From IMG/VR virus record IMGVR_UViG_2861074659_000002: a DNA stretch of 64,000 nt, one strand, 5' to 3'. The translations under genes were made by a program, and so were the position numbers. Shown here piece by piece: positions 1 to 52,020 of this stretch (the first letter of the stretch is position 1; each line of letters starts with the position of its first letter). The DNA comes from a virus (Duplodnaviria > Heunggongvirae > Uroviricota > Caudoviricetes). The notes below the pieces were generated by a model, which made no database searches, was not told where the DNA came from, and saw only the letters and a program-made list of their open reading frames with translations.

Positions 1-1201
<1,201 letters not shown>

Positions 1202-1224
<23 letters not shown>

Positions 1225-1997: not shown

Positions 1998-2188
1998 TTA
2001 TAAACTCCTTGCAATGTATGTCGTTTCAGCTAAACGGTATCAGCAATGTTTATGTAAAGAAACAGTAAGATAATACTCAACCCGATGTTTGAGTACGGTC
2101 ATCATCTGACACTACAGACTCTGGCATCGCTGTGAAGACGACGCGAAATTCAGCATTTTCACAAGCGTTATCTTTTACAAAACCGATC

Positions 2189-2737
2189 TCACTCTCCTTT
2201 GATGCGAATGCCAGCGTCAGACATCATATGCAGATACTCACCTGCATCCTGAACCCATTGACCTCCAACCCCGTAATAGCGATGCGTAATGATGTCGATA
2301 GTTACTAACGGGTCTTGTTCGATTAACTGCCGCAGAAACTCTTCCAGGTCACCAGTGCAGTGCTTGATAACAGGAGTCTTCCCAGGATGGCGAACAACAA
2401 GAAACTGGTTTCCGTCTTCACGGACTTCGTTGCTTTCCAGTTTAGCAATACGCTTACTCCCATCCGAGATAACACCTTCGTAATACTCACGCTGCTCGTT
2501 GAGTTTTGATTTTGCTGTTTCAAGCTCAACACGCAGTTTCCCTACTGTTAGCGCAATATCCTCGTTCTCCTGGTCGCGGCGTTTGATGTATTGCTGGTTT
2601 CTTTCCCGTTCATCCAGCAGTTCCAGCACAATCGATGGTGTTACCAATTCATGGAAAAGGTCTGCGTCAAATCCCCAGTCGTCATGCATTGCCTGCTCTG
2701 CCGCTTCACGCAGTGCCTGAGAGTTAATTTCGCTCAC
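2189..2737 (-). CDS. ea22: Ea22 protein (182 aa)
   Basis: Position and length match lambda ea22. Confidence 0.8.
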   Translation of the reverse strand: MSEINSQALREAAEQAMHDDWGFDADLFHELVTPSIVLELLDERERNQQYIKRRDQENEDIALTVGKLRVELETAKSKLNEQREYYEGVISDGSKRIAKLESNEVREDGNQFLVVRHPGKTPVIKHCTGDLEEFLRQLIEQDPLVTIDIITHRYYGVGGQWVQDAGEYLHMMSDAGIRIKGE

Positions 2738-2955
2738 TTCGAACCTCTCTGTTTACTGATAAGTTCCAGATCCTCCTGGCAACTTGCACAAGTCCGACAA
2801 CCCTGAACGACCAGGCGTCTTCGTTCATCTATCGGATCGCCACACTCACAACAATGAGTGGCAGATATAGCCTGGTGGTTCAGGCGGCGCATTTTTATTG
2901 CTGTGTTGCGCTGTAATTCTTCTATTTCTGATGCTGAATCAATGATGTCTGCCAT
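2734..2955 (-). CDS. Small hypothetical protein with four-Cys zinc-ribbon motif (CCECGD...CRTCASC), TraR/DksA-like
   Basis: 73 aa ORF overlapping ea22 start by 4 nt (operon-like coupling); Cys spacing typical of C4 zinc finger. Confidence 0.5.
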   Translation of the reverse strand: MADIIDSASEIEELQRNTAIKMRRLNHQAISATHCCECGDPIDERRRLVVQGCRTCASCQEDLELISKQRGSK

Positions 2956-3180
2956 CTTTCATTAATCCCTGAACTGTTGGTTAATACGCTTGAGGGTGAA
3001 TGCGAATAATAAAAAAGGAGCCTGTAGCTCCCTGATGATTTTGCTTTTCATGTTCATCGTTCCTTAAAGACGCCGTTTAACATGCCGATTGCCAGGCTTA
3101 AATGAGTCGGTGTGAATCCCATCAGCGTTACCGTTTCGCGGTGCTTCTTCAGTACGCTACGGCAAATGTCATCGACGTTT

Positions 3181-3366
3181 TTATCCGGAAACTGCTGTCT
3201 GGCTTTTTTTGATTTCAGAATTAGCCTGACGGGCAATGCTGCGAAGGGCGTTTTCCTGCTGAGGTGTCATTGAACAAGTCCCATGTCGGCAAGCATAAGC
3301 ACACAGAATATGAAGCCCGCTGCCAGAAAAATGCATTCCGTGGTTGTCATACCTGGTCTCTCTCAT
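3181..3366 (-). CDS. Hypothetical protein orf61 (61 aa)
   Basis: Length and position match lambda orf61. Confidence 0.55.
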   Translation of the reverse strand: MRETRYDNHGMHFSGSGLHILCAYACRHGTCSMTPQQENALRSIARQANSEIKKSQTAVSG

Positions 3367-3538
3367 CTGCTTCTGCTTTCGCCACCATCATTTCCAGCTT
3401 TTGTGAAAGGGATGCGGCTAACGTATGAAATTCTTCGTCTGTTTCTACTGGTATTGGCACAAACCTGATTCCAATTTGAGCAAGGCTATGTGCCATCTCG
3501 ATACTCGTTCTTAACTCAACAGAAGATGCTTTGTGCAT
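3347..3538 (-). CDS. Hypothetical protein orf63 (63 aa)
   Basis: Length and position match lambda orf63. Confidence 0.55.
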   Translation of the reverse strand: MHKASSVELRTSIEMAHSLAQIGIRFVPIPVETDEEFHTLAASLSQKLEMMVAKAEADERDQV

Positions 3539-3693
3539 ACAGCCCCTCGTTTATTATTTATCTCCTCAGCCAGCCGCTGTGCTTTCAGTGGATTTCGGAT
3601 AACAGAAAGGCCGGGAAATACCCAGCCTCGCTTTGTAACGGAGTAGACGAAAGTGATTGCGCCTACCCGGATATTATCGTGAGGATGCGTCAT
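3511..3693 (-). CDS. Hypothetical protein orf60a (60 aa from second Met of ORF)
   Basis: [19 protein letters not shown]...; 4-nt overlap with exo as in lambda. Confidence 0.55.
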
Positions 3694-4370
3694 CGCCATT
3701 GCTCCCCAAATACAAAACCAATTTCAGCCAGTGCCTCGTCCATTTTTTCGATGAACTCCGGCACGATCTCGTCAAAACTCGCCATGTACTTTTCATCCCG
3801 CTCAATCACGACATAATGCAGGCCTTCACGCTTCATACGCGGGTCATAGTTGGCAAAGTACCAGGCATTTTTTCGCGTCACCCACATGCTGTACTGCACC
3901 TGGGCCATGTAAGCTGACTTTATGGCCTCGAAACCACCGAGCCGGAACTTCATGAAATCCCGGGAGGTAAACGGGCATTTCAGTTCAAGGCCGTTGCCGT
4001 CACTGCATAAACCATCGGGAGAGCAGGCGGTACGCATACTTTCGTCGCGATAGATGATCGGGGATTCAGTAACATTCACGCCGGAAGTGAATTCAAACAG
4101 GGTTCTGGCGTCGTTCTCGTACTGTTTTCCCCAGGCCAGTGCTTTAGCGTTAACTTCCGGAGCCACACCGGTGCAAACCTCAGCAAGCAGGGTGTGGAAG
4201 TAGGACATTTTCATGTCAGGCCACTTCTTTCCGGAGCGGGGTTTTGCTATCACGTTGTGAACTTCTGAAGCGGTGATGACGCCGAGCCGTAATTTGTGCC
4301 ACGCATCTTCCCCCTGTTCGACAGCTCTCACATCGATCCCGGTACGCTGCAGGATAATGTCCGGTGTCAT
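3690..4370 (-). CDS. exo: Lambda exonuclease (Red alpha, 226 aa)
   Basis: [20 protein letters not shown]... matches lambda Exo. Confidence 0.95.
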
Positions 4371-5152
4371 GCTGCCACCTTCTGCTCTGCGGCTTTCTGT
4401 TTCAGGAATCCAAGAGCTTTTACTGCTTCGGCCTGTGTCAGTTCTGACGATGCACGAATGTCGCGGCGAAATATCTGGGAACAGAGCGGCAATAAGTCGT
4501 CATCCCATGTTTTATCCAGGGCGATCAGCAGAGTGTTAATCTCCTGCATGGTTTCATCGTTAACCGGAGTGATGTCGCGTTCCGGCTGACGTTCTGCAGT
4601 GTATGCAGTATTTTCGACAATGCGCTCGGCTTCATCCTTGTCATAGATACCAGCAAATCCGAAGGCCAGACGGGCACACTGAATCATGGCTTTATGACGT
4701 AACATCCGTTTGGGATGCGACTGCCACGGCCCCGTGATTTCTCTGCCTTCGCGAGTTTTGAATGGTTCGCGGCGGCATTCATCCATCCATTCGGTAACGC
4801 AGATCGGATGATTACGGTCCTTGCGGTAAATCCGGCATGTACAGGATTCATTGTCCTGCTCAAAGTCCATGCCATCAAACTGCTGGTTTTCATTGATGAT
4901 GCGGGACCAGCCATCAACGCCCACCACCGGAACGATGCCATTCTGCTTATCAGGAAAGGCGTAAATTTCTTTCGTCCACGGATTAAGGCCGTACTGGTTG
5001 GCAACGATCAGTAATGCGATGAACTGCGCATCGCTGGCATCACCTTTAAATGCCGTCTGGCGAAGAGTGGTGATCAGTTCCTGTGGGTCGACAGAATCCA
5101 TGCCGACACGTTCAGCCAGCTTCCCAGCCAGCGTTGCGAGTGCAGTACTCAT
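4367..5152 (-). CDS. bet: Red beta single-strand annealing protein (261 aa)
   Basis: [48 protein letters not shown]... matches lambda Bet. Confidence 0.95.
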
Positions 5153-5157
5153 TCGTT

Positions 5158-5574
5158 TTATACCTCTGAATCAATATCAACCTGGTGGTGAGCAATGGTT
5201 TCAACCATGTACCGGATGTGTTCTGCCATGCGCTCCTGAAACTCAACATCGTCATCAAACGCACGGGTAATGGATTTTTTGCTGGCCCCGTGGCGTTGCA
5301 AATGATCGATGCATAGCGATTCAAACAGGTGCTGGGGCAGGCCTTTTTCCATGTCGTCTGCCAGTTCTGCCTCTTTCTCTTCACGGGCGAGCTGCTGGTA
5401 GTGACGCGCCCAGCTCTGAGCCTCAAGACGATCCTGAATGTAATAAGCGTTCATGGCTGAACTCCTGAAATAGCTGTGAAAATATCGCCCGCGAAATGCC
5501 GGGCTGATTAGGAAAACAGGAAAGGGGGTTAGTGAATGCTTTTGCTTGATCTCAGTTTCAGTATTAATATCCAT
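5158..5574 (-). CDS. gam: Gam RecBCD inhibitor (138 aa)
   Basis: [24 protein letters not shown]... matches lambda Gam. Confidence 0.95.
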
Positions 5575-5672
5575 TTTTTATAAGCGTCGACGGCTTCACG
5601 AAACATCTTTTCATCGCCAATAAAAGTGGCGATAGTGAATTTAGTCTGGATAGCCATAAGTGTTTGATCCAT
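5529..5672 (-). CDS. kil: Kil host-killing protein (47 aa)
   Basis: [47 protein letters not shown]. Confidence 0.75.
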
Positions 5673-5805
5673 TCTTTGGGACTCCTGGCTGATTAAGTAT
5701 GTCGATAAGGCGTTTCCATCCGTCACGTAATTTACGGGTGATTCGTTCAAGTAAAGATTCGGAAGGGCAGCCAGCAACAGGCCACCCTGCAATGGCATAT
5801 TGCAT
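5641..5805 (-). CDS. cIII: CIII (54 aa), FtsH inhibitor stabilising CII
   Basis: [54 protein letters not shown]. Confidence 0.85.
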   Translation of the reverse strand: MQYAIAGWPVAGCPSESLLERITRKLRDGWKRLIDILNQPGVPKNGSNTYGYPD

Positions 5806-5877
5806 GGTGTGCTCCTTATTTATACATAACGAAAAACGCCTCGAGTGAAGCGTTATTGGTATGCGGTAAAACCGCAC

Positions 5878-6246
5878 TCAGGCGGCCTTGATAGTCATAT
5901 CATCTGAATCAAATATTCCTGATGTATCGATATCGGTAATTCTTATTCCTTCGCTACCATCCATTGGAGGCCATCCTTCCTGACCATTTCCATCATTCCA
6001 GTCGAACTCACACACAACACCATATGCATTTAAGTCGCTTGAAATTGCTATAAGCAGAGCATGTTGCGCCAGCATGATTAATACAGCATTTAATACAGAG
6101 CCGTGTTTATTGAGTCGGTATTCAGAGTCTGACCAGAAATTATTAATCTGGTGAAGTTTTTCCTCTGTCATTACGTCATGGTCGATTTCAATTTCTATTG
6201 ATGCTTTCCAGTCGTAATCAATGATGTATTTTTTGATGTTTGACAT
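5878..6246 (-). CDS. ea10: Ea10 protein (122 aa)
   Basis: Length and position match lambda ea10. Confidence 0.75.
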   Translation of the reverse strand: MSNIKKYIIDYDWKASIEIEIDHDVMTEEKLHQINNFWSDSEYRLNKHGSVLNAVLIMLAQHALLIAISSDLNAYGVVCEFDWNDGNGQEGWPPMDGSEGIRITDIDTSGIFDSDDMTIKAA

Positions 6247-6428
6247 CTGTTCATATCCTCACAGATAAAAAATCGCCCTCACACTGGAGGGCAAAGAAGA
6301 TTTCCAATAATCAGAACAAGTCGGCTCCTGTTTAGTTACGAGCGACATTGCTCCGTGTATTCACTCGTTGGAATGAATACACAGTGCAGTGTTTATTCTG
6401 TTATTTATGCCAAAAATAAAGGCCACTA

Positions 6429-6629
6429 TCAGGCAGCTTTGTTGTTCTGTTTACCAAGTTCTCTGGCAATCATTGCCGTCGTTCGTATTGCCCATTTATC
6501 GACATATTTCCCATCTTCCATTACAGGAAACATTTCTTCAGGCTTAACCATGCATTCCGATTGCAGCTTGCATCCATTGCATCGCTTGAATTGTCCACAC
6601 CATTGATTTTTATCAATAGTCGTAGTCAT
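6429..6629 (-). CDS. ral: Ral restriction-alleviation protein (66 aa)
   Basis: MTTTIDKNQWCGQFKRCNGCKLQSECMVKPEEMFPVMEDGKYVDKWAIRTTAMIARELGKQNNKAA. Confidence 0.85.
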   Translation of the reverse strand: MTTTIDKNQWCGQFKRCNGCKLQSECMVKPEEMFPVMEDGKYVDKWAIRTTAMIARELGKQNNKAA

Positions 6630-6707
6630 ACGGATAGTCCTGGTATTGTTCCATCACATCCTGAGGATGCTCTTCGAACTCTTCAAATTCTTCTTCCATA
6701 TATCACC

Positions 6708-7037
6708 TCAAATAAGTGGTTTGCTGCCTAATTTAATTTTCTGGCGACCAACACAAGTCACACCCATTTCACTGCGTGGCTTGCTGTAGTAAATACGGTT
6801 CTGTTTACGCTCGACTTCTTCTGCCTTCTTGCAGCGAAGGCTTCCGAGTGATGCTGCTTTATCTGCTCTGACGCAACCAGAGAGCTTTAGCGCAATTTTT
6901 CGCGCCAGTGCTTCATTACTGCGTCGCTCGGCAATAAGTTCTGCTCTGCGAGCTTTGTAGCGGCTTTTTGCCGTACCTTTGGATTCTTTCCAGACAATGG
7001 TTACCATGATGGTCTCCTTTAAGTGGCTTTGGCGCAT
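6708..7037 (-). CDS. N: N antiterminator of phage-21 type (ORF 109 aa; true start may be the internal Met at MVTIVWKESKG)
   Basis: Arginine-rich motif GTAKSRYKARRAELIAERR typical of phi21 N; C-terminus resembles lambda N (...GRQKIK..PLI). Confidence 0.8.
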   Translation of the reverse strand: MRQSHLKETIMVTIVWKESKGTAKSRYKARRAELIAERRSNEALARKIALKLSGCVRADKAASLGSLRCKKAEEVERKQNRIYYSKPRSEMGVTCVGRQKIKLGSKPLI

Positions 7038-7300
7038 GACGCGTCGAGGTGCTTATCTTCTCGATCGCTGTCTTGTAGCTGCAATTCGCGCCATCCCCAA
7101 AACCACTCAAGTTCTGGTCTCAACGGTTAGGTTGAGAGTCCGTCGATGTTAAAGAGCCTGCCAATCTGTTCCGTTTGGCTTCCAGCGTCCTGCTGATGGC
7201 TTAAATTTAAGACTTCTTAATTTATTGGTCAAGTGCATTTTTGAAGAAAACTTAATTTTATGGGCGTGAATTTAGTTTGTCTTTGATTTTTAACGGGAAA

Positions 7301-7322
7301 TAAAAAAGGGGCGAAAGCCCCT
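7301..7322 (-). terminator. Rho-independent terminator hairpin downstream of cI (GGGGC-TTTC-GCCCC followed by T-run on minus strand)
   Basis: Perfect 5-bp stem with T6 tail read on minus strand immediately after cI stop. Confidence 0.5.
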
Positions 7323-7972
7323 TAAGGAAGGTTTGCTAGCTTGGCATCAACGACAACGCCAATGATTTTACAGTTCCCATTGATTTCAATCATTGGGTAT
7401 TGTGGATTGAGTGGTTTCAGGAATTTTCTACCGGCATCAATAACTAACTTTTTGAATGTCGCCTCGTTTTCTCCTTCAAGTTTGGCGACTACCAGCTTTC
7501 CATTACGTGGTTCGACTTCTGGGTCGACGAGAATAATCATCCCCTCAGGAATACTCAGTCCTGCCGGGGCAGTCATTGAATCGCCTTTAACGTCGAGCCA
7601 AAAAGAGTCTTCAGAACAATCTACCGTTGTGTCGTACCAGTTATCTATTGCACGCCTATGATATGGCTCTACAGCTTCCATCCAACATCCTGCGCTTACC
7701 CAACTAATTAGAGGATACGAACCTCTTGGATCATGCCTGCTGTGATAGGCAATGTTTGAAAGACTATCCTCTCCTTTCAACAGGTAATCAGGGGAGCACT
7801 GCAAAGCCTTGGCTAAGGCCAATAGGTTTTCGCCATTGGGCTCAGTTTCAGATCGCTCCCATTGGGAAATAGCAACATTAGACACGCCAACCATCTTGCC
7901 AAGGGCAGCCTGCCTAATCTTGAGTTCTTTTCTGCGAGCGCGAATACGCTCACCCATCAGTTGTGTATTCAT
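7322..7972 (-). CDS. cI: CI-type repressor (216 aa), P22 c2 / phage 21 family, HTH N-domain plus LexA-like S24 autocleavage domain
   Basis: MNTQLMGERIRARRKELKIRQAALGKMVGVSNVAISQWERSE...GDSM...NGNCKIIGVVVDAKLANLP; intact in copy 1. Confidence 0.9.
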   Translation of the reverse strand: MNTQLMGERIRARRKELKIRQAALGKMVGVSNVAISQWERSETEPNGENLLALAKALQCSPDYLLKGEDSLSNIAYHSRHDPRGSYPLISWVSAGCWMEAVEPYHRRAIDNWYDTTVDCSEDSFWLDVKGDSMTAPAGLSIPEGMIILVDPEVEPRNGKLVVAKLEGENEATFKKLVIDAGRKFLKPLNPQYPMIEINGNCKIIGVVVDAKLANLP

Positions 7973-8052
7973 AGTTAAGACATCTTAAATAAACTTGACT
8001 TAAGATTCCTTTGGTGGATAATTTAAGTGTTCTTTAATTTCGGAGCGAGTCT
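7973..8052. promoter_or_regulatory. Divergent operator/promoter region between cI and cro (OR with pR and pRM); candidate pR -35 TTGACT (7995..8000) and -10 GATAAT (8017..8022)
   Basis: 80-bp intergenic region between divergent repressor genes with sigma70-like hexamers at 16-bp spacing. Confidence 0.55.
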
Positions 8053-8237
8053 ATGTACAAAAAAGATGTTATTGACCACTTCGGAACCCAGCGTGCTGTT
8101 GCTAAGCACTAGGCATTAGCGATGCAGCAGTCTCTCAGTGGAAAGAAGTTATCCCAGAGAAAGACGCCTATCGATTGGAAATCGTTACAGCTGGCGCCCT
8201 GAAGTATCAAGAAAGTGCTTACCGCCAAGCGGCATAA
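8053..8237 (+). pseudogene. cro: Cro (P22 / phage 21 type) interrupted by a 1-bp deletion after codon 18 (AAA to AA), premature stop
   Basis: MYKKDVIDHFGTQRAVAKH* in copy 1 versus intact 61-aa ORF at 51392..51577 in copy 2. Confidence 0.8.
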
Positions 8238-8352
8238 GCAAATTGCTCTTTAACAGTTCTGGCCTTTCACCTCTAACCGGGTGAGCAAACATCAGCGGCA
8301 AATCCATTGGGTGTGCCGCTATAACTCAATATCAATATAGGTAAATTAACAA

Positions 8353-8650
8353 ATGGCACAAGCAAGCTACAGCAAGCCAACACAGCGAGAAATTGATCGC
8401 GCTGAAACTGATTTACTCATCAACCTGTCAACGCTTACCCAGCGCGGTCTGGCAAAGATGATTGGCTGTCATGAATCGAGATAAGCAGAACGGACTGGAG
8501 ATTATTGCTTCGGTCTTGTGTGCTTTCGGAATGGCATCAGACATCAGTCCGATTAGCAGGGCTTTTAAGTATGCGCTTGATGGACTCACAAAGAAAAAAC
8601 GCCCGGTGTGCAAGACCGAGCGTTCTGAACAAATCCAGATGGAGTTCTGA
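8353..8650 (+). pseudogene. cII: CII-like activator, apparently split over three reading frames (N-terminal 43 codons, then C-terminal ...KKKRPVCKTERSEQIQMEF in another frame)
   Basis: N-terminus MAQASYSKPTQREIDRAETDLLINLSTLTQRGLAKMIGCHES resembles cII HTH region; C-terminus matches lambda CII tail; same in both copies. Confidence 0.55.
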
Positions 8651-8681
8651 GGTCATTACTGGATCTATCAACAGAGTCATT

Positions 8682-9576
8682 ATGACAAATACAGCAAAAT
8701 ACTCAACTTCGGCAGAGGTAACTTGCCGGACAGGAGCGTAATGTGGCAGATCTCGATGATGGTTACGCCAGACTATCAAATATGCTGCTTGAGGCTTATT
8801 CGGGCGCAGATCTGACCAAGCGACAGTTTAAAGTGCTGCTTGCCATTCTGCGTAAACCTATGGTGGAATAAACCAATGGACAGAATCACCGATTCTCAAC
8901 TTAGCGAGATTACAAAGTTACCTGTCAAACGGTGCAATGAAGCCAAGTTAGAACTCGTCAGAATGAATATTATCAAGCAGCAAGGCGGCATGTTTGGACC
9001 AAATAAAAACATCTCAGAATGGTGTATCCCTCAAACGAGGGGAAAATCCCCTAAACGAGGGATAAAACATCCCTCAAATTGGGGGATTGCTATCCCTCAA
9101 AACAGGGGGACACAAAAGACACTATTACAAAAGAAAAAAGAAAAGATTATTCGTCAGAGAATTCTGGCGAATCCTCTGACCAGCCAGAAAACGACCTTTC
9201 TGTGGTGAAACCGGATGCTGCAATTCAGAGCGGCAGCAAGTGGGGGACAGCAGAAGACCTGACCGCCGCAGAGTGGATGTTTGACATGGTGAAGACTATC
9301 GCACCATCAGCCAGAAAACCGAATTTTGCTGGGTGGGCTAACGATATCCGCCTGATGCGTGAACGTGACGGACGTAACCACCGCGACATGTGTGTGCTGT
9401 TCCGCTGGGCATGCCAGGACAACTTCTGGTCCGGTAACGTGCTGAGCCCGGCCAAACTCCGCGATAAGTGGACCCAACTCGAAATCAACCGTAACAAGCA
9501 ACAGGCAGGCGTGACAGCCAGCAAACCAAAACTCGACCTGACAAACACAGACTGGATTTACGGGGTGGATCTATGA
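8682..9576 (+). pseudogene. O: Replication initiator O, fragmented by several 1-nt indels in N-terminal region and iterons; C-terminal 165 aa domain intact
   Basis: MTNTAK then frame breaks; pieces ...NKPMDRITDSQLSEITKLPVKRCNEAKLELVRMNIIKQQGGMFGPNKNISEWCIPQ and CYPSKQGDTKDT...WIYGVDL match lambda O in different frames. Confidence 0.8.
9026..9150. promoter_or_regulatory. ori: Origin of replication (four O-binding iterons ATCCCTCAAA-CGAGGG type plus AT-rich region) embedded in O
   Basis: Four tandem ~18-20 bp inverted-repeat iterons followed by A-rich tract; iteron spacer lengths differ from what I recall for lambda. Confidence 0.7.
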
Positions 9577-10274
9577 AAAACATCGCCGCACAGATGGTTA
9601 ACTTTGACCGTGAGCAGATGCGTCGGATCGCCAACAACATGCCGGAACAGTACGACGAAAAGCCGCAGGTACAGCAGGTAGCGCAGATCATCAACGGTGT
9701 GTTCAGCCAGTTACTGGCAACTTTCCCGGCGAGCCTGGCTAACCGTGACCAGAACGAAGTGAACGAAATCCGTCGCCAGTGGGTTCTGGCTTTTCGGGAA
9801 AACGGGATCACCACGATGGAACAGGTTAACGCAGGAATGCGCGTAGCCCGTCGGCAGAATCGACCATTTCTGCCATCACCCGGGCAGTTTGTTGCATGGT
9901 GCCGGGAAGAAGCATCCGTTACCGCCGGACTGCCAAACGTCAGCGAGCTGGTTGATATGGTTTACGAGTATTGCCGGAAGCGAGGCCTGTATCCGGATGC
10001 GGAGTCTTATCCGTGGAAATCAAACGCGCACTACTGGCTGGTTACCAACCTGTATCAGAACATGCGGGCCAATGCGCTTACTGATGCGGAATTACGCCGT
10101 AAGGCCGCAGATGAGCTTGTCCATATGACTGCGAGAATTAACCGTGGTGAGGCGATCCCTGAACCAGTAAAACAACTTCCTGTCATGGGCGGTAGACCTC
10201 TAAATCGTGCACAGGCTCTGGCGAAGATCGCAGAAATCAAAGCTAAGTTCGGACTGAAAGGAGCAAGTGTATGA
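9573..10274 (+). CDS. P: Replication protein P (DnaB helicase loader, 233 aa)
   Basis: Full-length match to lambda P. Confidence 0.95.
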
Positions 10275-11074
10275 CGGGCAAAGAGGCAATTATTCATTAC
10301 CTGGGGACGCATAATAGCTTCTGTGCGCCGGACGTTGCCGCGCTAACAGGCGCAACAGTAACCAGCATAAATCAGGCCGCGGCTAAAATGGCACGGGCAG
10401 GTCTTCTGGTTATCGAAGGTAAGGTCTGGCGAACGGTGTATTACCGGTTTGCTACCAGGGAAGAACGGGAAGGAAAGATGAGCACGAACCTGATGAACAA
10501 ACTGGATACGATTGGATTCGACAACAAAAAAGACCTGCTTATCTCGGTGGGCGATTTGGTTGATCGTGGTGCAGAGAACGTTGAATGCCTGGAATTAATC
10601 ACATTCCCCTGGTTCAGAGCTGTACGTGGAAACCATGAGCAAATGATGATTGATGGCTTATCAGAGCGTGGAAACGTTAATCACTGGCTGCTTAATGGCG
10701 GTGGCTGGTTCTTTAATCTCGATTACGACAAAGAAATTCTGGCTAAAGCTCTTGCCCATAAAGCAGATGAACTTCCGTTAATCATCGAACTGGTGAGCAA
10801 AGATAAAAAATATGTTATCTGCCACGCCGATTATCCCTTTGACGAATACGAGTTTGGAAAGCCAGTTGATCATCAGCAGGTAATCTGGAACCGCGAACGA
10901 ATCAGCAACTCACAAAACGGGATCGTGAAAGAAATCAAAGGCGCGGACACGTTCATCTTTGGTCATACGCCAGCAGTGAAACCACTCAAGTTTGCCAACC
11001 AAATGTATATCGATACCGGCGCAGTGTTCTGCGGAAACCTAACATTGATTCAGGTACAGGGAGAAGGCGCATGA
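10271..11074 (+). CDS. Ren-NinI fusion created by nin5-type deletion; C-terminal part is Ser/Thr protein phosphatase (lambda PPase) with GDxVDRG and GNHE motifs
   Basis: N-terminus [27 protein letters not shown] (Ren) joined in frame to ...[36 protein letters not shown]...RGNHE (NinI/orf221). Confidence 0.85.
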
Positions 11075-11694
11075 GACTCGAAAGCGTAGCTAAATTTCAT
11101 TCGCCAAAAAGCCCGATGATGAGCGACTCACCACGGGCCACGGCTTCTGACTCTCTTTCCGGTACTGATGTGATGGCTGCTATGGGGATGGCGCAATCAC
11201 AAGCCGGATTCGGTATGGCTGCATTCTGCGGTAAGCACGAACTCAGCCAGAACGACAAACAAAAGGCTATCAACTATCTGATGCAATTTGCACACAAGGT
11301 ATCGGGGAAATACCGTGGTGTGGCATATCTTGAAGGAAATACTAAGGCAAAGGTACTGCAAGTGCTCGCAACATTCGCTTATGCGGATTATTGCCGTAGT
11401 GCCGCGACGCCGGGGGCAAGATGCAGAGATTGCCATGGTACAGGCCGTGCGGTTGATATTGCCAAAACAGAGCTGTGGGGGAGAGTTGTCGAGAAAGAGT
11501 GCGGAAGATGCAAAGGCGTCGGCTATTCAAGGATGCCAGCAAGCGCAGCATATCGCGCTGTGACGATGCTAATCCCAAACCTTACCCAACCCACCTGGTC
11601 ACGCACTGTTAAGCCGCTGTATGACGCTCTGGTGGTGCAATGCCACAAAGAAGAGTCAATCGCAGACAACATTTTGAATGCGGTCACACGTTAG
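11071..11694 (+). CDS. Q: Late gene antiterminator Q (207 aa)
   Basis: Length/position and sequence match lambda Q. Confidence 0.9.
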
Positions 11695-11736
11695 CAGCAT
11701 GATTGCCACGGATGGCAACATATTAACGGCATGATA

Positions 11737-11766
11737 TTGACTTATTGAATAAAATTGGGTAAATTT
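11737..11766 (+). promoter_or_regulatory. Late promoter pR' (-35 TTGACT 11737..11742, -10 TAAATT 11760..11765, 17-bp spacer), with qut region
   Basis: Consensus-like sigma70 hexamers downstream of Q and about 190 nt upstream of tR'. Confidence 0.65.
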
Positions 11767-11805
11767 GACTCAACGATGGGTTAATTCGCTCGTTGTGGTA
11801 GTGAG

Positions 11806-12000
11806 ATGAAAAGAGGCGGCGCTTACTACCGATTCCGCCTAGTTGGTCACTTCGACGTATCGTCTGGAACTCCAACCATCGCAGGCAGAGAGGTCTGCAA
11901 AATGCAATCCCGAAACAGTTCGCAGGTAATAGTTAGAGCCTGCATAACGGTTTCGGGATTTTTTATATCTGCACAACAGGTAAGAGCATTGAGTCGATAA
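11806..12000 (+). CDS. Hypothetical orf-64 overlapping 6S leader RNA region
   Basis: 64-aa ORF at lambda orf-64 position; coding status doubtful. Confidence 0.3.
   Translation: MKRGGAYYRFRLVGHFDVSSGTPTIAGREVCKMQSRNSSQVIVRACITVSGFFISAQQVRALSR
11905..11966 (+). terminator. tR' terminator (3' end of 6S RNA): stem AATCCCGAAAC...GTTTCGGGATT followed by T-run
   Basis: Long GC-containing hairpin followed by TTTTTTA. Confidence 0.65.
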
Positions 12001-12370
12001 TCGTGAAGAGTCGGCGAGCCTGGTTAGCCAGTGCTCTTTCCGTTGTGCTGAATTAAGCGAATACCGGAAGCAGAACCGGATCACCAAATGCGTACAGGCG
12101 TCATCGCCGCCCAGCAACAGCACAACCCAAACTGAGCCGTAGCCACTGTCTGTCCTGAATTCATTAGTAATAGTTACGCTGCGGCCTTTTACACATGACC
12201 TTCGTGAAAGCGGGTGGCAGGAGGTCGCGCTAACAACCTCCTGCCGTTTTGCCCGTGCATATCGGTCACGAACAAATCTGATTACTAAACACAGTAGCCT
12301 GGATTTGTTCTATCAGTAATCGACCTTATTCCTAATTAAATAGAGCAAATCCCCTTATTGGGGGTAAGAC

Positions 12371-12694
12371 ATGAAGATGCCAGAAAAACATGACCTGTTG
12401 GCCGCCATTCTCGCGGCAAAGGAACAAGGCATCGGGGCAATCCTTGCGTTTGCAATGGCGTACCTTCGCGGCAGATATAATGGCGGTGCGTTTACAAAAA
12501 CAGTAATCGACGCAACGATGTGCGCCATTATCGCCTGGTTCATTCGTGACCTTCTCGACTTCGCCGGACTAAGTAGCAATCTCGCTTATATAACGAGCGT
12601 GTTTATCGGCTACATCGGTACTGACTCGATTGGTTCGCTTATCAAACGCTTCGCTGCTAAAAAAGCCGGAGTAGAAGATGGTAGAAATCAATAA
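12371..12694 (+). CDS. S: Holin/antiholin S (S107 from Met1; S105 holin from Met3 at 12377), wild type
   Basis: [34 protein letters not shown]...; dual-start MKM motif; Trp56 codon intact. Confidence 0.95.
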
Positions 12695-13154
12695 TCAACG
12701 TAAGGCGTTCCTCGATATGCTGGCGTGGTCGGAGGGAACTGATAACGGACGTCAGAAAACCAGAAATCATGGTTATGACGTCATTGTAGGCGGAGAGCTA
12801 TTCACTGATTACTCCGATCACCCTCGCAAACTTGTCACGCTAAACCCAAAACTCAAATCAACAGGCGCCGGACGCTACCAGCTTCTTTCCCGTTGGTGGG
12901 ATGCCTACCGCAAGCAGCTTGGCCTGAAAGACTTCTCTCCGAAAAGTCAGGACGCTGTGGCATTGCAGCAGATTAAGGAGCGTGGCGCTTTACCTATGAT
13001 TGATCGTGGTGATATCCGTCAGGCAATCGACCGTTGCAGCAATATCTGGGCTTCACTGCCGGGCGCTGGTTATGGTCAGTTCGAGCATAAGGCTGACAGC
13101 CTGATTGCAAAATTCAAAGAAGCGGGCGGAACGGTCAGAGAGATTGATGTATGA
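12678..13154 (+). CDS. R: Endolysin R (lytic transglycosylase, 158 aa)
   Basis: [28 protein letters not shown]... matches lambda R. Confidence 0.95.
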
Positions 13155-13612
13155 GCAGAGTCACCGCGATTATCTCCGCTCTGGTTATCTGCATCATCGT
13201 CTGCCTGTCATGGGCTGTTAATCATTACCGTGATAACGCCATTACCTACAAAGCCCAGCGCGACAAAAATGCCAGAGAACTGAAGCTGGCGAACGCGGCA
13301 ATTACTGACATGCAGATGCGTCAGCGTGATGTTGCTGCGCTCGATGCAAAATACACGAAGGAGTTAGCTGATGCTAAAGCTGAAAATGATGCTCTGCGTG
13401 ATGATGTTGCCGCTGGTCGTCGTCGGTTGCACATCAAAGCAGTCTGTCAGTCAGTGCGTGAAGCCACCACCGCCTCCGGCGTGGATAATGCAGCCTCCCC
13501 CCGACTGGCAGACACCGCTGAACGGGATTATTTCACCCTCAGAGAGAGGCTGATCACTATGCAAAAACAACTGGAAGGAACCCAGAAGTATATTAATGAG
13601 CAGTGCAGATAG
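13151..13612 (+). CDS. Rz: Spanin inner-membrane subunit Rz (153 aa)
   Basis: Matches lambda Rz. Confidence 0.9.
13371..13553 (+). CDS. Rz1: Spanin outer-membrane lipoprotein Rz1 (60 aa), embedded in +1 frame of Rz
   Basis: [23 protein letters not shown]... lipobox LVVVGC, proline-rich. Confidence 0.85.
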
Positions 13613-13643
13613 AGCTGACCATATCGATGGGCAACTCATGCAA

Positions 13644-13937
13644 TTATTTTGAGCAATACACACGCGCTTCCAGCGGAGTATAAATGCCTAAAGTAATAAA
13701 ACCGAGCAATCCATTTACGAATGTTTGCTGGGTTTCTGTTTTAACAACATTTTCTGCGCCGCCACAAATTTTAGCTGCATCGACAGTTTTCTTCTGCCCA
13801 ATTCCAGAAACGAAGAAATGATGGGTGATGGTTTCCTTTGGTGCTACTGCTGCCGGTTTGTTTTGAACAGTAAACGTCTGTTGAGCACATCCTGTAATAA
13901 GCAGGGCCAGCGCAGTAGCGAGTAGCATTTTTTTCAT
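13644..13937 (-). CDS. bor: Bor lipoprotein (serum resistance, 97 aa)
   Basis: MKKMLLATALALLITGCAQQ... lipobox; matches lambda Bor. Confidence 0.9.
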   Translation of the reverse strand: MKKMLLATALALLITGCAQQTFTVQNKPAAVAPKETITHHFFVSGIGQKKTVDAAKICGGAENVVKTETQQTFVNGLLGFITLGIYTPLEARVYCSK

Positions 13938-14226
13938 GGTGTTATTCCCGATGCTTTTTGAAGTTCGCAGAATCGTATGTGTAGAAAATTAAACAAACCC
14001 TAAACAATGAGTTGAAATTTCATATTGTTAATATTTATTAATGTATGTCAGGTGCGATGAATCGTCATTGTATTCCCGGATTAACTATGTCCACAGCCCT
14101 GACGGGGAACTTCTCTGCGGGAGTGTCCGGGAATAATTAAAACGATGCACACAGGGTTTAGCGCGTACACGTATTGCATTATGCCAACGCCCCGGTGCTG
14201 ACACGGAAGAAACCGGACGTTATGAT

Positions 14227-14760
14227 TTAGCGTGGAAAGATTTGTGTAGTGTTCTGAATGCTCTCAGTAAATAGTAATGAATTATCAAAGGTATAGTAAT
14301 ATCTTTTATGTTCATGGATATTTGTAACCCATCGGAAAACTCCTGCTTTAGCAAGATTTTCCCTGTATTGCTGAAATGTGATTTCTCTTGATTTCAACCT
14401 ATCATAGGACGTTTCTATAAGATGCGTGTTTCTTGAGAATTTAACATTTACAACCTTTTTAAGTCCTTTTATTAACACGGTGTTATCGTTTTCTAACACG
14501 ATGTGAATATTATCTGTGGCTAGATAGTAAATATAATGTGAGACGTTGTGACGTTTTAGTTCAGAATAAAACAATTCACAGTCTAAATCTTTTCGCACTT
14601 GATCGAATATTTCTTTAAAAATGGCAACCTGAGCCATTGGTAAAACCTTCCATGTGATACGAGGGCGCGTAGTTTGCATTATCGTTTTTATCGTTTCAAT
14701 CTGGTCTGACCTCCTTGTGTTTTGTTGATGATTTATGTCAAATATTAGGAATGTTTTCAC
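14227..14760 (-). CDS. Hypothetical protein (lambda p78-like, 177 aa)
   Basis: ORF at lambda p78 position between bor and cos. Confidence 0.6.
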
Positions 14761-14922
14761 TTAATAGTATTGGTTGCGTAACAAAGTGCGGTCCTGCTGG
14801 CATTCTGGAGGGAAATACAACCGACAGATGTATGTAAGGCCAACGTGCTCAAATCTTCATACAGAAAGATTTGAAGTAATATTTTAACCGCTAGATGAAG
14901 AGCAAGCGCATGGAGCGACAAA

Positions 14923-15129
14923 ATGAATAAAGAACAATCTGCTGATGATCCCTCCGTGGATCTGATTCGTGTAAAAAATATGCTTAATAGCACCATTTCT
15001 ATGAGTTACCCTGATGTTGTAATTGCATGTATAGAACATAAGGTGTCTCTGGAAGCATTCAGAGCAATTGAGGCAGCGTTGGTGAAGCACGATAATAATA
15101 TGAAGGATTATTCCCTGGTGGTTGACTGA
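14923..15129 (+). CDS. Hypothetical protein (lambda p79-like, 68 aa)
   Basis: ORF at lambda p79 position. Confidence 0.4.
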
Positions 15130-15293
15130 TCACCATAACTGCTAATCATTCAAACTATTTAGTCTGTGACAGAGCCAACACGCAGTCTGTCACTGTCAGG
15201 AAAGTGGTAAAACTGCAACTCAATTACTGCAATGCCCTCGTAATTAAGTGAATTTACAATATCGTCCTGTTCGGAGGGAAGAACGCGGGATGT

Positions 15294-15488
15294 TCATTCT
15301 TCATCACTTTTAATTGATGTATATGCTCTCTTTTCTGACGTTAGTCTCCGACGGCAGGCTTCAATGACCCAGGCTGAGAAATTCCCGGACCCTTTTTGCT
15401 CAAGAGCGATGTTAATTTGTTCAATCATTTGGTTAGGAAAGCGGATGTTGCGGGTTGTTGTTCTGCGGGTTCTGTTCTTCGTTGACAT
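15294..15488 (-). CDS. Putative small ribbon-helix-helix DNA-binding protein (64 aa)
   Basis: RNIRFPNQMIEQINIALEQKG...FSAWVIEACRRRL pattern resembles Arc/CopG RHH fold; about 200 bp from cos. Confidence 0.35.
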   Translation of the reverse strand: MSTKNRTRRTTTRNIRFPNQMIEQINIALEQKGSGNFSAWVIEACRRRLTSEKRAYTSIKSDEE

Positions 15489-15675
15489 GAGGTTGCCCCG
15501 TATTCAGTGTCGCTGATTTGTATTGTCTGAAGTTGTTTTTACGTTAAGTTGATGCAGATCAATTAATACGATACCTGCGTCATAATTGATTATTTGACGT
15601 GGTTTGATGGCCTCCACGCACGTTGTGATATGTAGATGATAATCATTATCACTTTACGGGTCCTTTCCGGTGATC

Positions 15676-15699
15676 CGACAGGTTACGGGGCGGCGACCT
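15676..15699. other. cos: cos site (cosN); right end ...CAGGTTACG joined to left-end 12-nt cohesive sequence GGGCGGCGACCT
   Basis: Exact lambda cohesive-end sequence at 15688..15699 followed by Nu1 190 nt downstream. Confidence 0.9.
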
Positions 15700-15876
15700 C
15701 GCGGGTTTTCGCTATTTATGAAAATTTTCCGGTTTAAGGCGTTTCCGTTCTTCTTCGTCATAACTTAATGTTTTTATTTAAAATACCCTCTGAAAAGAAA
15801 GGAAACGACAGGTGCTGAAAGCGAGCTTTTTGGCCTCTGTCGTTTCCTTTCTCTGTTTTTGTCCGTGGAATGAACA

Positions 15877-16396
15877 ATGGAAGTCAACAAAAAGCAGCTG
15901 GCTGACATTTTCGGTGCGAGTATCCGTACCATTCAGAACTGGCAGGAACAGGGAATGCCCGTTCTGCGAGGCGGTGGCAAGGGTAATGAGGTGCTTTATG
16001 ACTCTGCCGCCGTCATAAAATGGTATGCCGAAAGGGATGCTGAAATTGAGAACGAAAAGCTGCGCCGGGAGGTTGAAGAACTGCGGCAGGCCAGCGAGGC
16101 AGATCTCCAGCCAGGAACTATTGAGTACGAACGCCATCGACTTACGCGTGCGCAGGCCGACGCACAGGAACTGAAGAATGCCAGAGACTCCGCTGAAGTG
16201 GTGGAAACCGCATTCTGTACTTTCGTGCTGTCGCGGATCGCAGGTGAAATTGCCAGTATTCTCGACGGGCTCCCCCTGTCGGTGCAGCGGCGTTTTCCGG
16301 AACTGGAAAACCGACATGTTGATTTCCTGAAACGGGATATCATCAAAGCCATGAACAAAGCAGCCGCGCTGGATGAACTGATACCGGGGTTGCTGA

Positions 16397-16422
<26 letters not shown>
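15877..16422 (+). CDS. nu1: Terminase small subunit Nu1 (181 aa)
   Basis: MEVNKKQLADIFGASIRTIQNWQEQGMPV... matches lambda Nu1. Confidence 0.95.
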
Positions 16423-20103
<3,681 letters not shown>

Positions 20104-20123
<20 letters not shown>

Positions 20124-21422
20124 TCTCCCGCATATTGCCAGCATGGCCTTTAATGAGCCGCTGATGCTTGAACCCGCCTATGCGCGGGTTTTCTTTTGTG
20201 CGCTTGCAGGCCAGCTTGGGATCAGCAGCCTGACGGATGCGGTGTCCGGCGACAGCCTGACTGCCCAGGAGGCACTCGCGACGCTGGCATTATCCGGTGA
20301 TGATGACGGACCACGACAGGCCCGCAGTTATCAGGTCATGAACGGCATCGCCGTGCTGCCGGTGTCCGGCACGCTGGTCAGCCGGACGCGGGCGCTGCAG
20401 CCGTACTCGGGGATGACCGGTTACAACGGCATTATCGCCCGTCTGCAACAGGCTGCCAGCGATCCGATGGTGGACGGCATTCTGCTCGATATGGACACGC
20501 CCGGCGGGATGGTGGCGGGGGCATTTGACTGCGCTGACATCATCGCCCGTGTGCGTGACATAAAACCGGTATGGGCGCTTGCCAACGACATGAACTGCAG
20601 TGCAGGTCAGTTGCTTGCCAGTGCCGCCTCCCGGCGTCTGGTCACGCAGACCGCCCGGACAGGCTCCATCGGCGTCATGATGGCTCACAGTAATTACGGT
20701 GCTGCGCTGGAGAAACAGGGTGTGGAAATCACGCTGATTTACAGCGGCAGCCATAAGGTGGATGGCAACCCCTACAGCCATCTTCCGGATGACGTCCGGG
20801 AGACACTGCAGTCCCGGATGGACGCAACCCGCCAGATGTTTGCGCAGAAGGTGTCGGCATATACCGGCCTGTCCGTGCAGGTTGTGCTGGATACCGAGGC
20901 TGCAGTGTACAGCGGTCAGGAGGCCATTGATGCCGGACTGGCTGATGAACTTGTTAACAGCACCGATGCGATCACCGTCATGCGTGATGCACTGGATGCA
21001 CGTAAATCCCGTCTCTCAGGAGGGCGAATGACCAAAGAGACTCAATCAACAACTGTTTCAGCCACTGCTTCGCAGGCTGACGTTACTGACGTGGTGCCAG
21101 CGACGGAGGGCGAGAACGCCAGCGCGGCGCAGCCGGACGTGAACGCGCAGATCACCGCAGCGGTTGCGGCAGAAAACAGCCGCATTATGGGGATCTCAAC
21201 TGTGAGGAGGCTCACGGACGCGAAGAACAGGCACGCGTGCTGGCAGAAACCCCCGGTATGACCGTGAAAACGGCCCGCCGCATTCTGGCCGCAGCACCAC
21301 AGAGTGCACAGGCGCGCAGTGACACTGCGCTGGATCGTCTGATGCAGGGGGCACCGGCACCGCTGGCTGCAGGTAACCCGGCATCTGATGCCGTTAACGA
21401 TTTGCTGAACACACCAGTGTAA
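20104..21422 (+). pseudogene. C: Prohead protease C with nested scaffold Nu3; frameshifted by 1-bp deletion at 21191..21196
   Basis: GTG start at 20104; after ...AENSRIMGI the frame ends at 21261 while the C/Nu3 C-terminus (LAETPGMTVKTARRILAAAP...DLLNTPV) continues in another frame to 21422. Confidence 0.8.
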
Positions 21423-21431
21423 GGGATGTTT

Positions 21432-21764
21432 ATGACGAGCAAAGAAACCTTTACCCATTACCAGCCGCAGGGCAACAGTGACCCGGCTCATACCGCAACC
21501 GCGCCCGGCGGATTGAGTGCGAAAGCGCCTGCAATGACCCCGCTGATGCTGGACACCTCCAGCCGTAAGCTGGTTGCGTGGGATGGCACCACCGACGGTG
21601 CTGCCGTTGGCATTCTTGCGGTTGCTGCTGACCAGACCAGCACCACGCTGACGTTCTACAAGTCCGGCACGTTCCGTTATGAGGATGTGCTCTGGCCGGA
21701 GGCTGCCAGCGACGAGACGAAAAAACGGACCGCGTTTGCCGGAACGGCAATCAGCATCGTTTAA
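21432..21764 (+). CDS. D: Head decoration protein D (110 aa)
   Basis: [52 protein letters not shown]... Confidence 0.95.
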
Positions 21765-21819
21765 CTTTACCCTTCATCACTAAAGGCCGCCTGTGCGGCT
21801 TTTTTTACGGGATTTTTTT

Positions 21820-22845
21820 ATGTCGATGTACACAACCGCCCAACTGCTGGCGGCAAATGAGCAGAAATTTAAGTTTGATCCGCTGTTTCTGCGTCTCTTT
21901 TTCCGTGAGAGCTATCCCTTCACCACGGAGAAAGTCTATCTCTCACAAATTCCGGGACTGGTAAACATGGCGCTGTACGTTTCGCCGATTGTTTCCGGTG
22001 AGGTTATCCGTTCCCGTGGCGGCTCCACCTCTGAATTTACGCCGGGATATGTCAAGCCGAAGCATGAAGTGAATCCGCAGATGACCCTGCGTCGCCTGCC
22101 GGATGAAGATCCGCAGAATCTGGCGGACCCGGCTTACCGCCGCCGTCGCATCATCATGCAGAACATGCGTGACGAAGAGCTGGCCATTGCTCAGGTCGAA
22201 GAGATGCAGGCAGTTTCTGCCGTGCTTAAGGGCAAATACACCATGACCGGTGAAGCCTTCGATCCGGTTGAGGTGGATATGGGCCGCAGTGAGGAGAATA
22301 ACATCACGCAGTCCGGCGGCACGGAGTGGAGCAAGCGTGACAAGTCCACGTATGACCCGACCGACGATATCGAAGCCTACGCGCTGAACGCCAGCGGTGT
22401 GGTGAATATCATCGTGTTCGATCCGAAAGGCTGGGCGCTGTTCCGTTCCTTCAAAGCCGTCAAGGAGAAGCTGGATACCCGTCGTGGCTCTAATTCCGAG
22501 CTGGAGACAGCGGTGAAAGACCTGGGCAAAGCGGTGTCCTATAAGGGGATGTATGGCGATGTGGCCATCGTCGTGTATTCCGGACAGTACGTGGAAAACG
22601 GCGTCAAAAAGAACTTCCTGCCGGACAACACGATGGTGCTGGGGAACACTCAGGCACGCGGTCTGCGCACCTATGGCTGCATTCAGGATGCGGACGCACA
22701 GCGCGAAGGCATTAACGCCTCTGCCCGTTACCCGAAAAACTGGGTGACCACCGGCGATCCGGCGCGTGAGTTCACCATGATTCAGTCAGCACCGCTGATG
22801 CTGCTGGCTGACCCTGATGAGTTCGTGTCCGTACAACTGGCGTAA
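21820..22845 (+). CDS. E: Major capsid protein E (341 aa)
   Basis: MSMYTTAQLLAANEQKFKFDPLFLRLFFRESYPFTTEKVYLSQIPGLVNMALYVSPIVSGEVIRSRGGSTSEF... Confidence 0.95.
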   Translation: MSMYTTAQLLAANEQKFKFDPLFLRLFFRESYPFTTEKVYLSQIPGLVNMALYVSPIVSGEVIRSRGGSTSEFTPGYVKPKHEVNPQMTLRRLPDEDPQNLADPAYRRRRIIMQNMRDEELAIAQVEEMQAVSAVLKGKYTMTGEAFDPVEVDMGRSEENNITQSGGTEWSKRDKSTYDPTDDIEAYALNASGVVNIIVFDPKGWALFRSFKAVKEKLDTRRGSNSELETAVKDLGKAVSYKGMYGDVAIVVYSGQYVENGVKKNFLPDNTMVLGNTQARGLRTYGCIQDADAQREGINASARYPKNWVTTGDPAREFTMIQSAPLMLLADPDEFVSVQLA

Positions 22846-22886
22846 TCATGGCCCTTCGGGGCCATTGTTTCTCTGTGGAGGAGTCC

Positions 22887-23285
22887 ATGACGAAAGATGA
22901 ACTGATTGCCCGTCTCCGCTCGCTGGGTGAACAACTGAACCGTGATGTCAGCCTGACGGGGACGAAAGAAGAACTGGCGCTCCGTGTGGCAGAGCTGAAA
23001 GAGGAGCTTGATGACACGGATGAAACTGCCGGTCAGGACACCCCTCTCAGCCGGGAAAATGTGCTGACCGGACATGAAAATGAGGTGGGATCAGCGCAGC
23101 CGGATACCGTGATTCTGGATACGTCTGAACTGGTCACGGTCGTGGCACTGGTGAAGCTGCATACTGATGCACTTCACGCCACGCGGGATGAACCTGTGGC
23201 ATTTGTGCTGCCGGGAACGGCGTTTCGTGTCTCTGCCGGTGTGGCAGCCGAAATGACAGAGCGCGGCCTGGCCAGAATGCAATAA
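22887..23285 (+). CDS. FI: DNA packaging protein FI (132 aa)
   Basis: MTKDELIARLRSLGEQLNRDVSLTGTKEELALRVAELKEE... Confidence 0.9.
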   Translation: MTKDELIARLRSLGEQLNRDVSLTGTKEELALRVAELKEELDDTDETAGQDTPLSRENVLTGHENEVGSAQPDTVILDTSELVTVVALVKLHTDALHATRDEPVAFVLPGTAFRVSAGVAAEMTERGLARMQ

Positions 23286-23296
23286 CGGGAGGCGCT

Positions 23297-23650
23297 GTGG
23301 CTGATTTCGATAACCTGTTCGATGCTGCCATTGCCCGCGCCGATGAAACGATACGCGGGTACATGGGAACGTCAGCCACCATTACATCCGGTGAGCAGTC
23401 AGGTGCGGTGATACGTGGTGTTTTTGATGACCCTGAAAATATCAGCTATGCCGGACAGGGCGTGCGCGTTGAAGGCTCCAGCCCGTCCCTGTTTGTCCGG
23501 ACTGATGAGGTGCGGCAGCTGCGGCGTGGAGACACGCTGACCATCGGTGAGGAAAATTTCTGGGTAGATCGGGTTTCGCCGGATGATGGCGGAAGTTGTC
23601 ATCTCTGGCTTGGACGGGGCGTACCGCCTGCCGTTAACCGTCGCCGCTGA
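23297..23650 (+). CDS. FII: Head-tail connector FII (117 aa)
   Basis: Matches lambda gpFII. Confidence 0.9.
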   Translation: MADFDNLFDAAIARADETIRGYMGTSATITSGEQSGAVIRGVFDDPENISYAGQGVRVEGSSPSLFVRTDEVRQLRRGDTLTIGEENFWVDRVSPDDGGSCHLWLGRGVPPAVNRRR

Positions 23651-23661
23651 AAGGGGGATGT

Positions 23662-24240
23662 ATGGCCATAAAAGGTCTTGAGCAGGCCGTTGAAAACCTC
23701 AGCCGTATCAGCAAAACGGCGGTGCCTGGTGCCGCCGCAATGGCCATTAACCGCGTTGCTTCATCCGCGATATCGCAGTCGGCGTCACAGGTTGCCCGTG
23801 AGACAAAGGTACGCCGGAAACTGGTAAAGGAAAGGGCCAGGCTGAAAAGGGCCACGGTCAAAAATCCGCAGGCCAGAATCAAAGTTAACCGGGGGGATTT
23901 GCCCGTAATCAAGCTGGGTAATGCGCGGGTTGTCCTTTCGCGCCGCAGGCGTCGTAAAAAGGGGCAGCGTTCATCCCTGAAAGGTGGCGGCAGCGTGCTT
24001 GTGGTGGGTAACCGTCGTATTCCCGGCGCGTTTATTCAGCAACTGAAAAATGGCCGGTGGCATGTCATGCAGCGTGTGGCTGGGAAAAACCGTTACCCCA
24101 TTGATGTGGTGAAAATCCCGATGGCGGTGCCGCTGACCACGGCGTTTAAACAAAATATTGAGCGGATACGGCGTGAACGTCTTCCGAAAGAGCTGGGCTA
24201 TGCGCTGCAGCATCAACTGAGGATGGTAATAAAGCGATGA
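23662..24240 (+). CDS. Z: Tail component Z (192 aa)
   Basis: Matches lambda gpZ. Confidence 0.9.
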   Translation: MAIKGLEQAVENLSRISKTAVPGAAAMAINRVASSAISQSASQVARETKVRRKLVKERARLKRATVKNPQARIKVNRGDLPVIKLGNARVVLSRRRRRKKGQRSSLKGGGSVLVVGNRRIPGAFIQQLKNGRWHVMQRVAGKNRYPIDVVKIPMAVPLTTAFKQNIERIRRERLPKELGYALQHQLRMVIKR

Positions 24241-24632
24241 AACATACTGAACTCCGTGCAGCCGTACTGGATGCACTGGAGAAGCATGACACCGGGGCGA
24301 CGTTTTTTGATGGTCGCCCCGCTGTTTTTGATGAGGCGGATTTTCCGGCAGTTGCCGTTTATCTCACCGGCGCTGAATACACGGGCGAAGAGCTGGACAG
24401 CGATACCTGGCAGGCGGAGCTGCATATCGAAGTTTTCCTGCCTGCTCAGGTGCCGGATTCAGAGCTGGATGCGTGGATGGAGTCCCGGATTTATCCGGTG
24501 ATGAGCGATATCCCGGCACTGTCAGATTTGATCACCAGTATGGTGGCCAGCGGCTATGACTACCGGCGCGACGATGATGCGGGCTTGTGGAGTTCAGCCG
24601 ATCTGACTTATGTCATTACCTATGAAATGTGA
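24237..24632 (+). CDS. U: Tail tube terminator U (131 aa)
   Basis: Matches lambda gpU. Confidence 0.9.
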
Positions 24633-24639
24633 GGACGCT

Positions 24640-48494: not shown

Positions 48495-48499
48495 CCGTT

Positions 48500-51989: not shown

Positions 51990-52020
51990 GGTCATTACTG
52001 GATCTATCAACAGAGTCATT

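Follow-up and report, generated by a model that had tools for sequence, protein, structure and literature searches.

The C/Nu3 locus

The DNA analysed here, a stretch of 64 kb referred to throughout as the window, carries on its forward strand a copy of the phage lambda head protease gene C and of the scaffold gene Nu3 nested within it. The features of this locus are as follows:

20104..21261, + strand: gene C (S49 head protease) as written, 385 aa, correct to residue 363 and followed by 22 out-of-frame residues and a stop
20818..21261, + strand: nested Nu3 scaffold frame, truncated by the gap in C; its ATG corresponds to lambda 5132, from the lambda annotation mapped through the alignment
21189..21197, + strand: remnant of lambda BamHI site 1 (GGGGAT^CTC), lambda 5509 being missing between 21194 and 21195
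21195..21422, + strand: authentic C/Nu3 C-terminal segment, 75 codons in a displaced frame, listed as ORF 21237..21422 (LAETPGMTVK...DLLNTPV)

The true start of C is the GTG at 20104, the longest open reading frame spans 19969..21261, and the frame ends at 21261. Residues 1-363 are identical to lambda C and include an intact Peptidase_S49 domain (residues 150-297; Pfam PF01343, E = 1.1e-44). The nested in-frame start of Nu3 is also present, and Nu3 has its C-terminus in common with C. Over these shared 75 C-terminal residues, the single continuous frame is absent as written, with the break at 21195. Wild-type lambda C/Nu3 (J02459 4418..5737 and 5132..5737, respectively) has both the BamHI site and one frame, whereas the window as written is without the C-terminal 75 residues. 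At 21185..21200, the window reads TTATGGGGATCTCAAC against GGGGATCCTCAAC in lambda J02459, in which the BamHI site lies at 5505; over the core of this interval, 21189..21197, GGGGATCTC stands against GGGGATCCTC. An earlier note made from the sequence alone had read the window in this way, had given lambda a BamHI site at this point in C and had described the C-terminal frame as out of register with the body of the gene. The alignment bears out each of these statements: one base, lambda 5509, is absent, and the C/Nu3 C-terminus is out of frame with the body ending at 21261. Insertion of A, C or T at the gap yields a 439-aa protein identical to lambda C, the 75 displaced codons being otherwise untouched.

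One way to take the locus at face value is to assume that the truncated C/Nu3 is functional or recoded, for instance by ribosomal frameshifting that would restore the C-terminus. This idea can be dismissed for practical purposes: the local sequence, GGGGATCTCAAC, supports no slippery-site argument, a single frame is kept at all of the more than 3,200 homologous loci, and the same record breaks many unrelated genes. The gap allele was not found among 50,697 phage records, 5,426 E. coli genomes, IMG/VR or the GTDB representative genomes. It was likewise not found in JGI metagenome contigs, a result that carries no weight, given that the control DE3 allele was equally absent there. Searches for exact protein matches to the frameshifted C, to the truncated J and to the Bla' fusion were all negative.

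Two tandem lambda–phage 21 hybrid units

BLAST comparison with lambda J02459 indicates that the window is engineered phage DNA throughout, with no host sequence. It is composed of two tandem lambda–phage 21 hybrid units in prophage order, of about 43.3 kb each, both carrying imm21 and nin5:

1..319, + strand: 5' fragment of TEM bla with an EcoRI/BamHI linker that meets lambda int at the BamHI site 27972
313..43407, + strand: unit 1, in the order 'int-xis-exo...imm21...nin5...QSR-cos (15687/15688)-A...J-b region-attP
43408..64000, + strand: unit 2, incomplete, with intact attP/int, phage-21-type exo-bet-gam (46922..49709), imm21, nin5, cos (59026/59027) and Nu1..B

The 5' end of TEM bla (1..312) opens the window with its ATG; some 101 codons of it precede GGAATTCGGATCC, after which comes lambda int at 27972. 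Positions 313..6724 correspond to lambda 27971..34381, after which come a non-lambda immunity block, lambda 38591..40501, the nin5 deletion and lambda 43298..48502. From 15688 to 50066, the window follows lambda 1..34381, continuous across an intact attP and int; beyond 50066, the order of immunity block, nin5 and right arm is repeated, and lambda 1..4975 then runs to the window end. Unit 2 ends before its own C site, which would follow some 535 bases further on, and its allele at lambda 5509 falls outside. The earlier note had also placed a second, retained BamHI site in tfa; the site is there (lambda 22346, orf-194/tfa), although it occupies 38030..38035 rather than 38029..38034. The other BamHI sites in the window are at 314 and 43656.

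The two units are different phages, separated by 59 substitutions, 58 of them in exo-bet-gam. Across 2,851 bp, the exo-bet-gam-kil-cIII-ea10 block of unit 2 (46922..49709) is indistinguishable (100.0% identity) from authentic phage 21 (OL657228). In unit 1, this block is of the lambda version, so the left crossover points differ between the two hybrids. The units are joined via an intact attP, and int is interrupted by foreign DNA in unit 1 and intact in unit 2. This tandem arrangement is the one that would be expected from an int-defective phage lysogenised with an int+ helper. In unit 1, the nin5 deletion yields a 267-aa ren–nin fusion ORF (10271..11074), which is annotated likewise in DE3. 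Among 5,426 E. coli genomes, no full match was found to the bla'-int junction, the lambda/21 crossover or the indel cluster described below.

Relationship to the DE3/D69 vector lineage

The closest sequenced relative of unit 1 is the DE3 prophage (EU078592), with 99.96% identity over window positions 313..36915 (36.6 kb). The 16 differences between them comprise 13 one-base deletions, one one-base insertion and two substitutions. The DE3 prophage is the lambda D69 BamHI insertion vector (Mizusawa & Ward 1982, cited in PMC12090343) with an insert. DE3 and unit 1 have identical imm21 substitution junctions, without a single difference, and share the nin5 deletion as well as the loss of HindIII 44141 (AAGCTT to TATCTT). 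This HindIII site, located in gene Q, has been removed by two substitutions in both units of the window (11326..11328 and 54665..54667). Both phages also carry foreign DNA at the BamHI site in int (lambda 27972), which in the window consists of bla' and the linker.

The BamHI site in C is absent from DE3, as it is from the window, and the connection that the earlier note had drawn between this loss and vector engineering holds in this respect: the sequenced phage nearest to unit 1, built on the D69 BamHI vector backbone, is without the site as well. However, the two sequences differ in how the site is lost. DE3 reads GGGGATACTC, in which a C-to-A change at lambda 5509 converts GGATCC into GGATAC and the Ile364 codon from ATC to ATA; the change is silent and the frame is kept, whereas the window has a gap at this diagnostic position. 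The base absent from C in the window is thus exactly the base substituted in DE3. At 100% identity, the A allele occurs in only 18 of the 3,225 E. coli records with the locus, all 18 being DE3 strains. The A allele is therefore a laboratory marker of the vector lineage.

Several differences set the window apart from DE3. DE3 is deleted for lambda 21226-26104 (EcoRI 1-2), whereas the window retains the b region and the BamHI site at 38030; the DE3 insert is lacI-lacUV5-T7 gene 1, whereas that of the window is a bla' fragment; and J is wild type in DE3, whereas in the window it carries substitutions. Judged from its sequence, the window backbone belongs to the D69/DE3 vector family, yet it is distinct from D69 itself in retaining the b region and in having another J and another insert.

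The DE3 allele has one occurrence in IMG/VR. The contig concerned (L007; IMGVR_UViG_3300008886_000010) has the DE3-type GGATAC and, along the 12.3 kb from Rz to E, 29 substitutions relative to the window; it may represent a DE3 recombinant or a further phage of the vector lineage. Origami2-DE3 was considered as a tandem-lysogen comparator and set aside, the assembly around its imm21 fragment being scrambled and uninformative. In the RefSeq record (L006; NZ_CP084529.1 4540001..4590000), this fragment lies between gltX and tRNA genes and adjoins F-plasmid and DLP12 pieces.

Other lambda vectors provide further points of comparison. In the replacement vectors L47, 1059 and EMBL3/4, the marker sbhI-lambda-1° denotes that BamHI site 1 has been lost while the phage stays viable, which means an in-frame change. 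A literature search on the sbhI genotype symbol retrieved unrelated papers only. The RS45-type reporter phages (imm21 ind+ bla'-lacZsc; PMC2681174, PMC5001618) combine imm21 with a 3'-truncated bla arm at the cloning junction, as does the window. The bla' arm and imm21 of the window resemble those of RS45-type lacZ transfer phages, the lacZ side of the insert lying outside the window.

Other indels and substitutions in the window

The gap in C is one of 28 one-base indels that the whole window shows relative to DE3 and phage 21, against only three substitutions outside the phage 21 block. Three of the indels are isolated gaps that affect C, K (at lambda 14426) and J (at nt 3034 of the gene), and the remaining 25 are clustered:

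30111..30112, + strand: gap in K (lambda 14426, A), which splits this tail gene into ORFs 29818..30171 and 30090..30560
34188..34417, + strand: J C-terminal region, with C2999T (A1000V) at 34188, the gap at nt 3034 (34222/34223) and G3229T (V1077L) at 34417
8104..9053, + strand: 11 one-base indels of unit 1, each a change in homopolymer length, in cro21, cII21, the O ribosome-binding site, O and the ori iterons
50908..52392, + strand: 14 one-base indels of unit 2, in cI21, the nutR region, cII21, O and ori

Restoring one base at the gap in K yields the full-length protein of 199 aa. If the true base there were G, K would carry T51A. No known variant at lambda 14426 was found. The J gene as written stops at 34261, after 1023 of its 1132 residues, and one base restored at the gap yields a 1132-aa J with A1000V and V1077L. 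C2999T and A3034G are both recurrent host-range mutations in J (PMC5046904), and the gap in J coincides with nt 3034, the position of the canonical host-range change A3034G (S1012G). C2999T is also found in the lambda-pir prophage of strain ST18. The sequence of this region suggests that the vector stock behind the window carried a J allele of the extended-host-range (h) type.

The indel clusters occur only in the imm21–O–ori region of each unit, at a density of about one indel per 100 bp, and neighbouring 6-nt runs are correct. Ten of the 14 indels in the unit 2 cluster are common to unit 1 and four are its own (three of these in cI21), which brings the unit-specific indels over both units to five. 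The best match to the unit 1 cluster among 5,426 E. coli genomes is 99.1%, and about 20 independent DE3 sequences, which agree with one another, differ from the window at all 11 positions of this cluster. As written, cro, cII and O are broken in both units and cI in unit 2, and C, K and J are broken as well. In unit 2, the phage 21 repressor cI21 also carries R11C (CGC to TGC) at 51287, a substitution that is seen neither in unit 1 or DE3 nor in phage 21 or lambda imm21; a helper phage with a true clear or regulatory allele could be its source.

Origin of the missing base

Taken together, the sequence comparisons indicate that the base missing from C is most probably an error of the sequence record, introduced at the consensus or assembly stage, rather than a property of the phage. 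The true C/Nu3 would then most likely be in frame and functional, with either GGATAC or a mixture of GGATAC and GGATCC between the tandem copies. In the model that we favour, the DNA is an engineered lambda–phage 21 hybrid prophage of reporter type, with a backbone that it shares with the D69/DE3 BamHI vector lineage. This lineage lost BamHI site 1 in C by the silent C-to-A change that converts GGATCC into GGATAC, and the variant base would have been dropped in the record. A plausible cause would be the presence of A and C alleles in the two tandem units, a conflict that a consensus step could have turned into a gap; an ambiguity character may also have been stripped out. Put more generally, the consensus step may have mishandled positions at which one tandem copy conflicts with the other, or the reads with a guide sequence.

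Several lines of evidence support a record error. The excess of indels over substitutions (14 vs. 2 in unit 1) is typical of consensus error and the reverse of the spontaneous mutation spectrum. Ten identical indels occur in two otherwise different phages. C, K and J all regain their full length when a single base is added at each of the isolated gaps, with nothing else wrong downstream. The position of the isolated gaps also matters: that in C falls on the base substituted in DE3 and that in J on nt 3034, which points to the mishandling of variant positions. For two of three isolated gaps to fall on known variant bases within 27.7 kb, we estimate a chance of about 1e-6, assuming some 20 known variant positions. 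A final argument comes from the way in which such lysogens are made. An insertion phage needs to be propagated lytically before lysogenisation, and a phage without cro, cII, O, C, K and J function could not be grown to make the lysogen.

Other observations run counter to a record error. The record is otherwise clean, as illustrated by the 2,851 bp at 100% identity to phage 21 and by the agreement of all 93 homopolymers of at least 6 nt with the references. The indels are sharply localised, at about one per 100 bp in imm21–O and only three elsewhere. Moreover, C, K, J and O are dispensable in a lysogen, so real defects in them would be tolerated after integration. Three general causes of sequencing error were considered and rejected: base-calling error at Dam sites (only one of 161 GATC sites is affected), the classical long-homopolymer error (all 93 runs of at least 6 nt match the references) and low coverage of AT-rich regions, the clusters having an ordinary GC content (0.45) and the far more AT-rich b region (0.39) being free of indels.

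A related but distinct proposal places the artefact on a wild-type site. The true sequence would then be GGATCC, one of its two C residues having disappeared, for instance when a homopolymer or a Dam site (GATC) was miscalled, and BamHI site 1 would be present in the real DNA. The gap can indeed be described as a contraction of CC to C, comparable to the shortened homopolymers of the imm21–O clusters, and the left arm is not purely D69, with a full b region and J substitutions that have no DE3 counterpart. Nevertheless, we regard this proposal as highly improbable, given the single affected GATC site and the absence of any wrong long homopolymer. In addition, the gaps in K and J are not in homopolymers, and the coincidence of the gap in C with the DE3 variant base, and of that in J with nt 3034, implicates variant positions rather than sequence context.

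Another alternative is a genuine −1 frameshift in C/Nu3, spontaneous or produced by site-removal engineering, which would leave a defective prophage making no heads. The gap is present in the sequence, the site was targeted by vector builders, the head genes of a resident prophage are not under selection, and the tandem partner could supply C in trans. Yet a real deletion appears unlikely on several grounds. In DE3, the nearest relative, the same base has been silently substituted, and a further loss of exactly that base would have no known cause. Standard BamHI fill-in or trimming alters the length by four bases, not one. The 75 displaced codons are intact, and at the time of lysogenisation the phage with the bla' insertion must have been viable. 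A real deletion would also demand that the 27 other one-base indels be real, when only three substitutions lie outside the phage 21 block and ten of the indels are identical in two different units. The reading in the earlier note that the site was removed by a frameshifting deletion, and that this copy is non-viable, finds no support as biology: DE3 carries a silent ATC-to-ATA change at the missing base, the record contains 27 other one-base indels, and one added base restores C. The earlier note had itself named a point substitution as what would refute a deletion, and this is the state of the nearest relative, DE3. A BamHI digest cannot tell the two apart, because substitution and deletion both abolish the site.

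Extended to the whole record, a literal reading would describe a laboratory strain whose tandem pair of lambda–phage 21 hybrid prophages has been disabled by numerous −1 frameshifts (in C/Nu3, K, J, O, cro and cII), the lesion in C lying on the old BamHI-removal site. We consider it decidedly doubtful that the gaps are real in this sense; if they were, this prophage would have to be subject to an unusual mutational process with a bias towards deletions.

Implications

The main consequence of a record error concerns quality control. Taken as written, the record would lead an annotator to score C/Nu3, K, J, O, cro and cII as pseudogenes and the engineered prophage as defective, and the comparisons above suggest that the source of such calls is the record, not the phage itself. 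What is real beneath the gap is already known, namely the silent removal of BamHI site 1 inherited from the D69 vector lineage. The frameshift in C itself is most likely not a real feature, and, should it prove real, its sole consequence would be that this laboratory copy of the prophage is unable to make heads.
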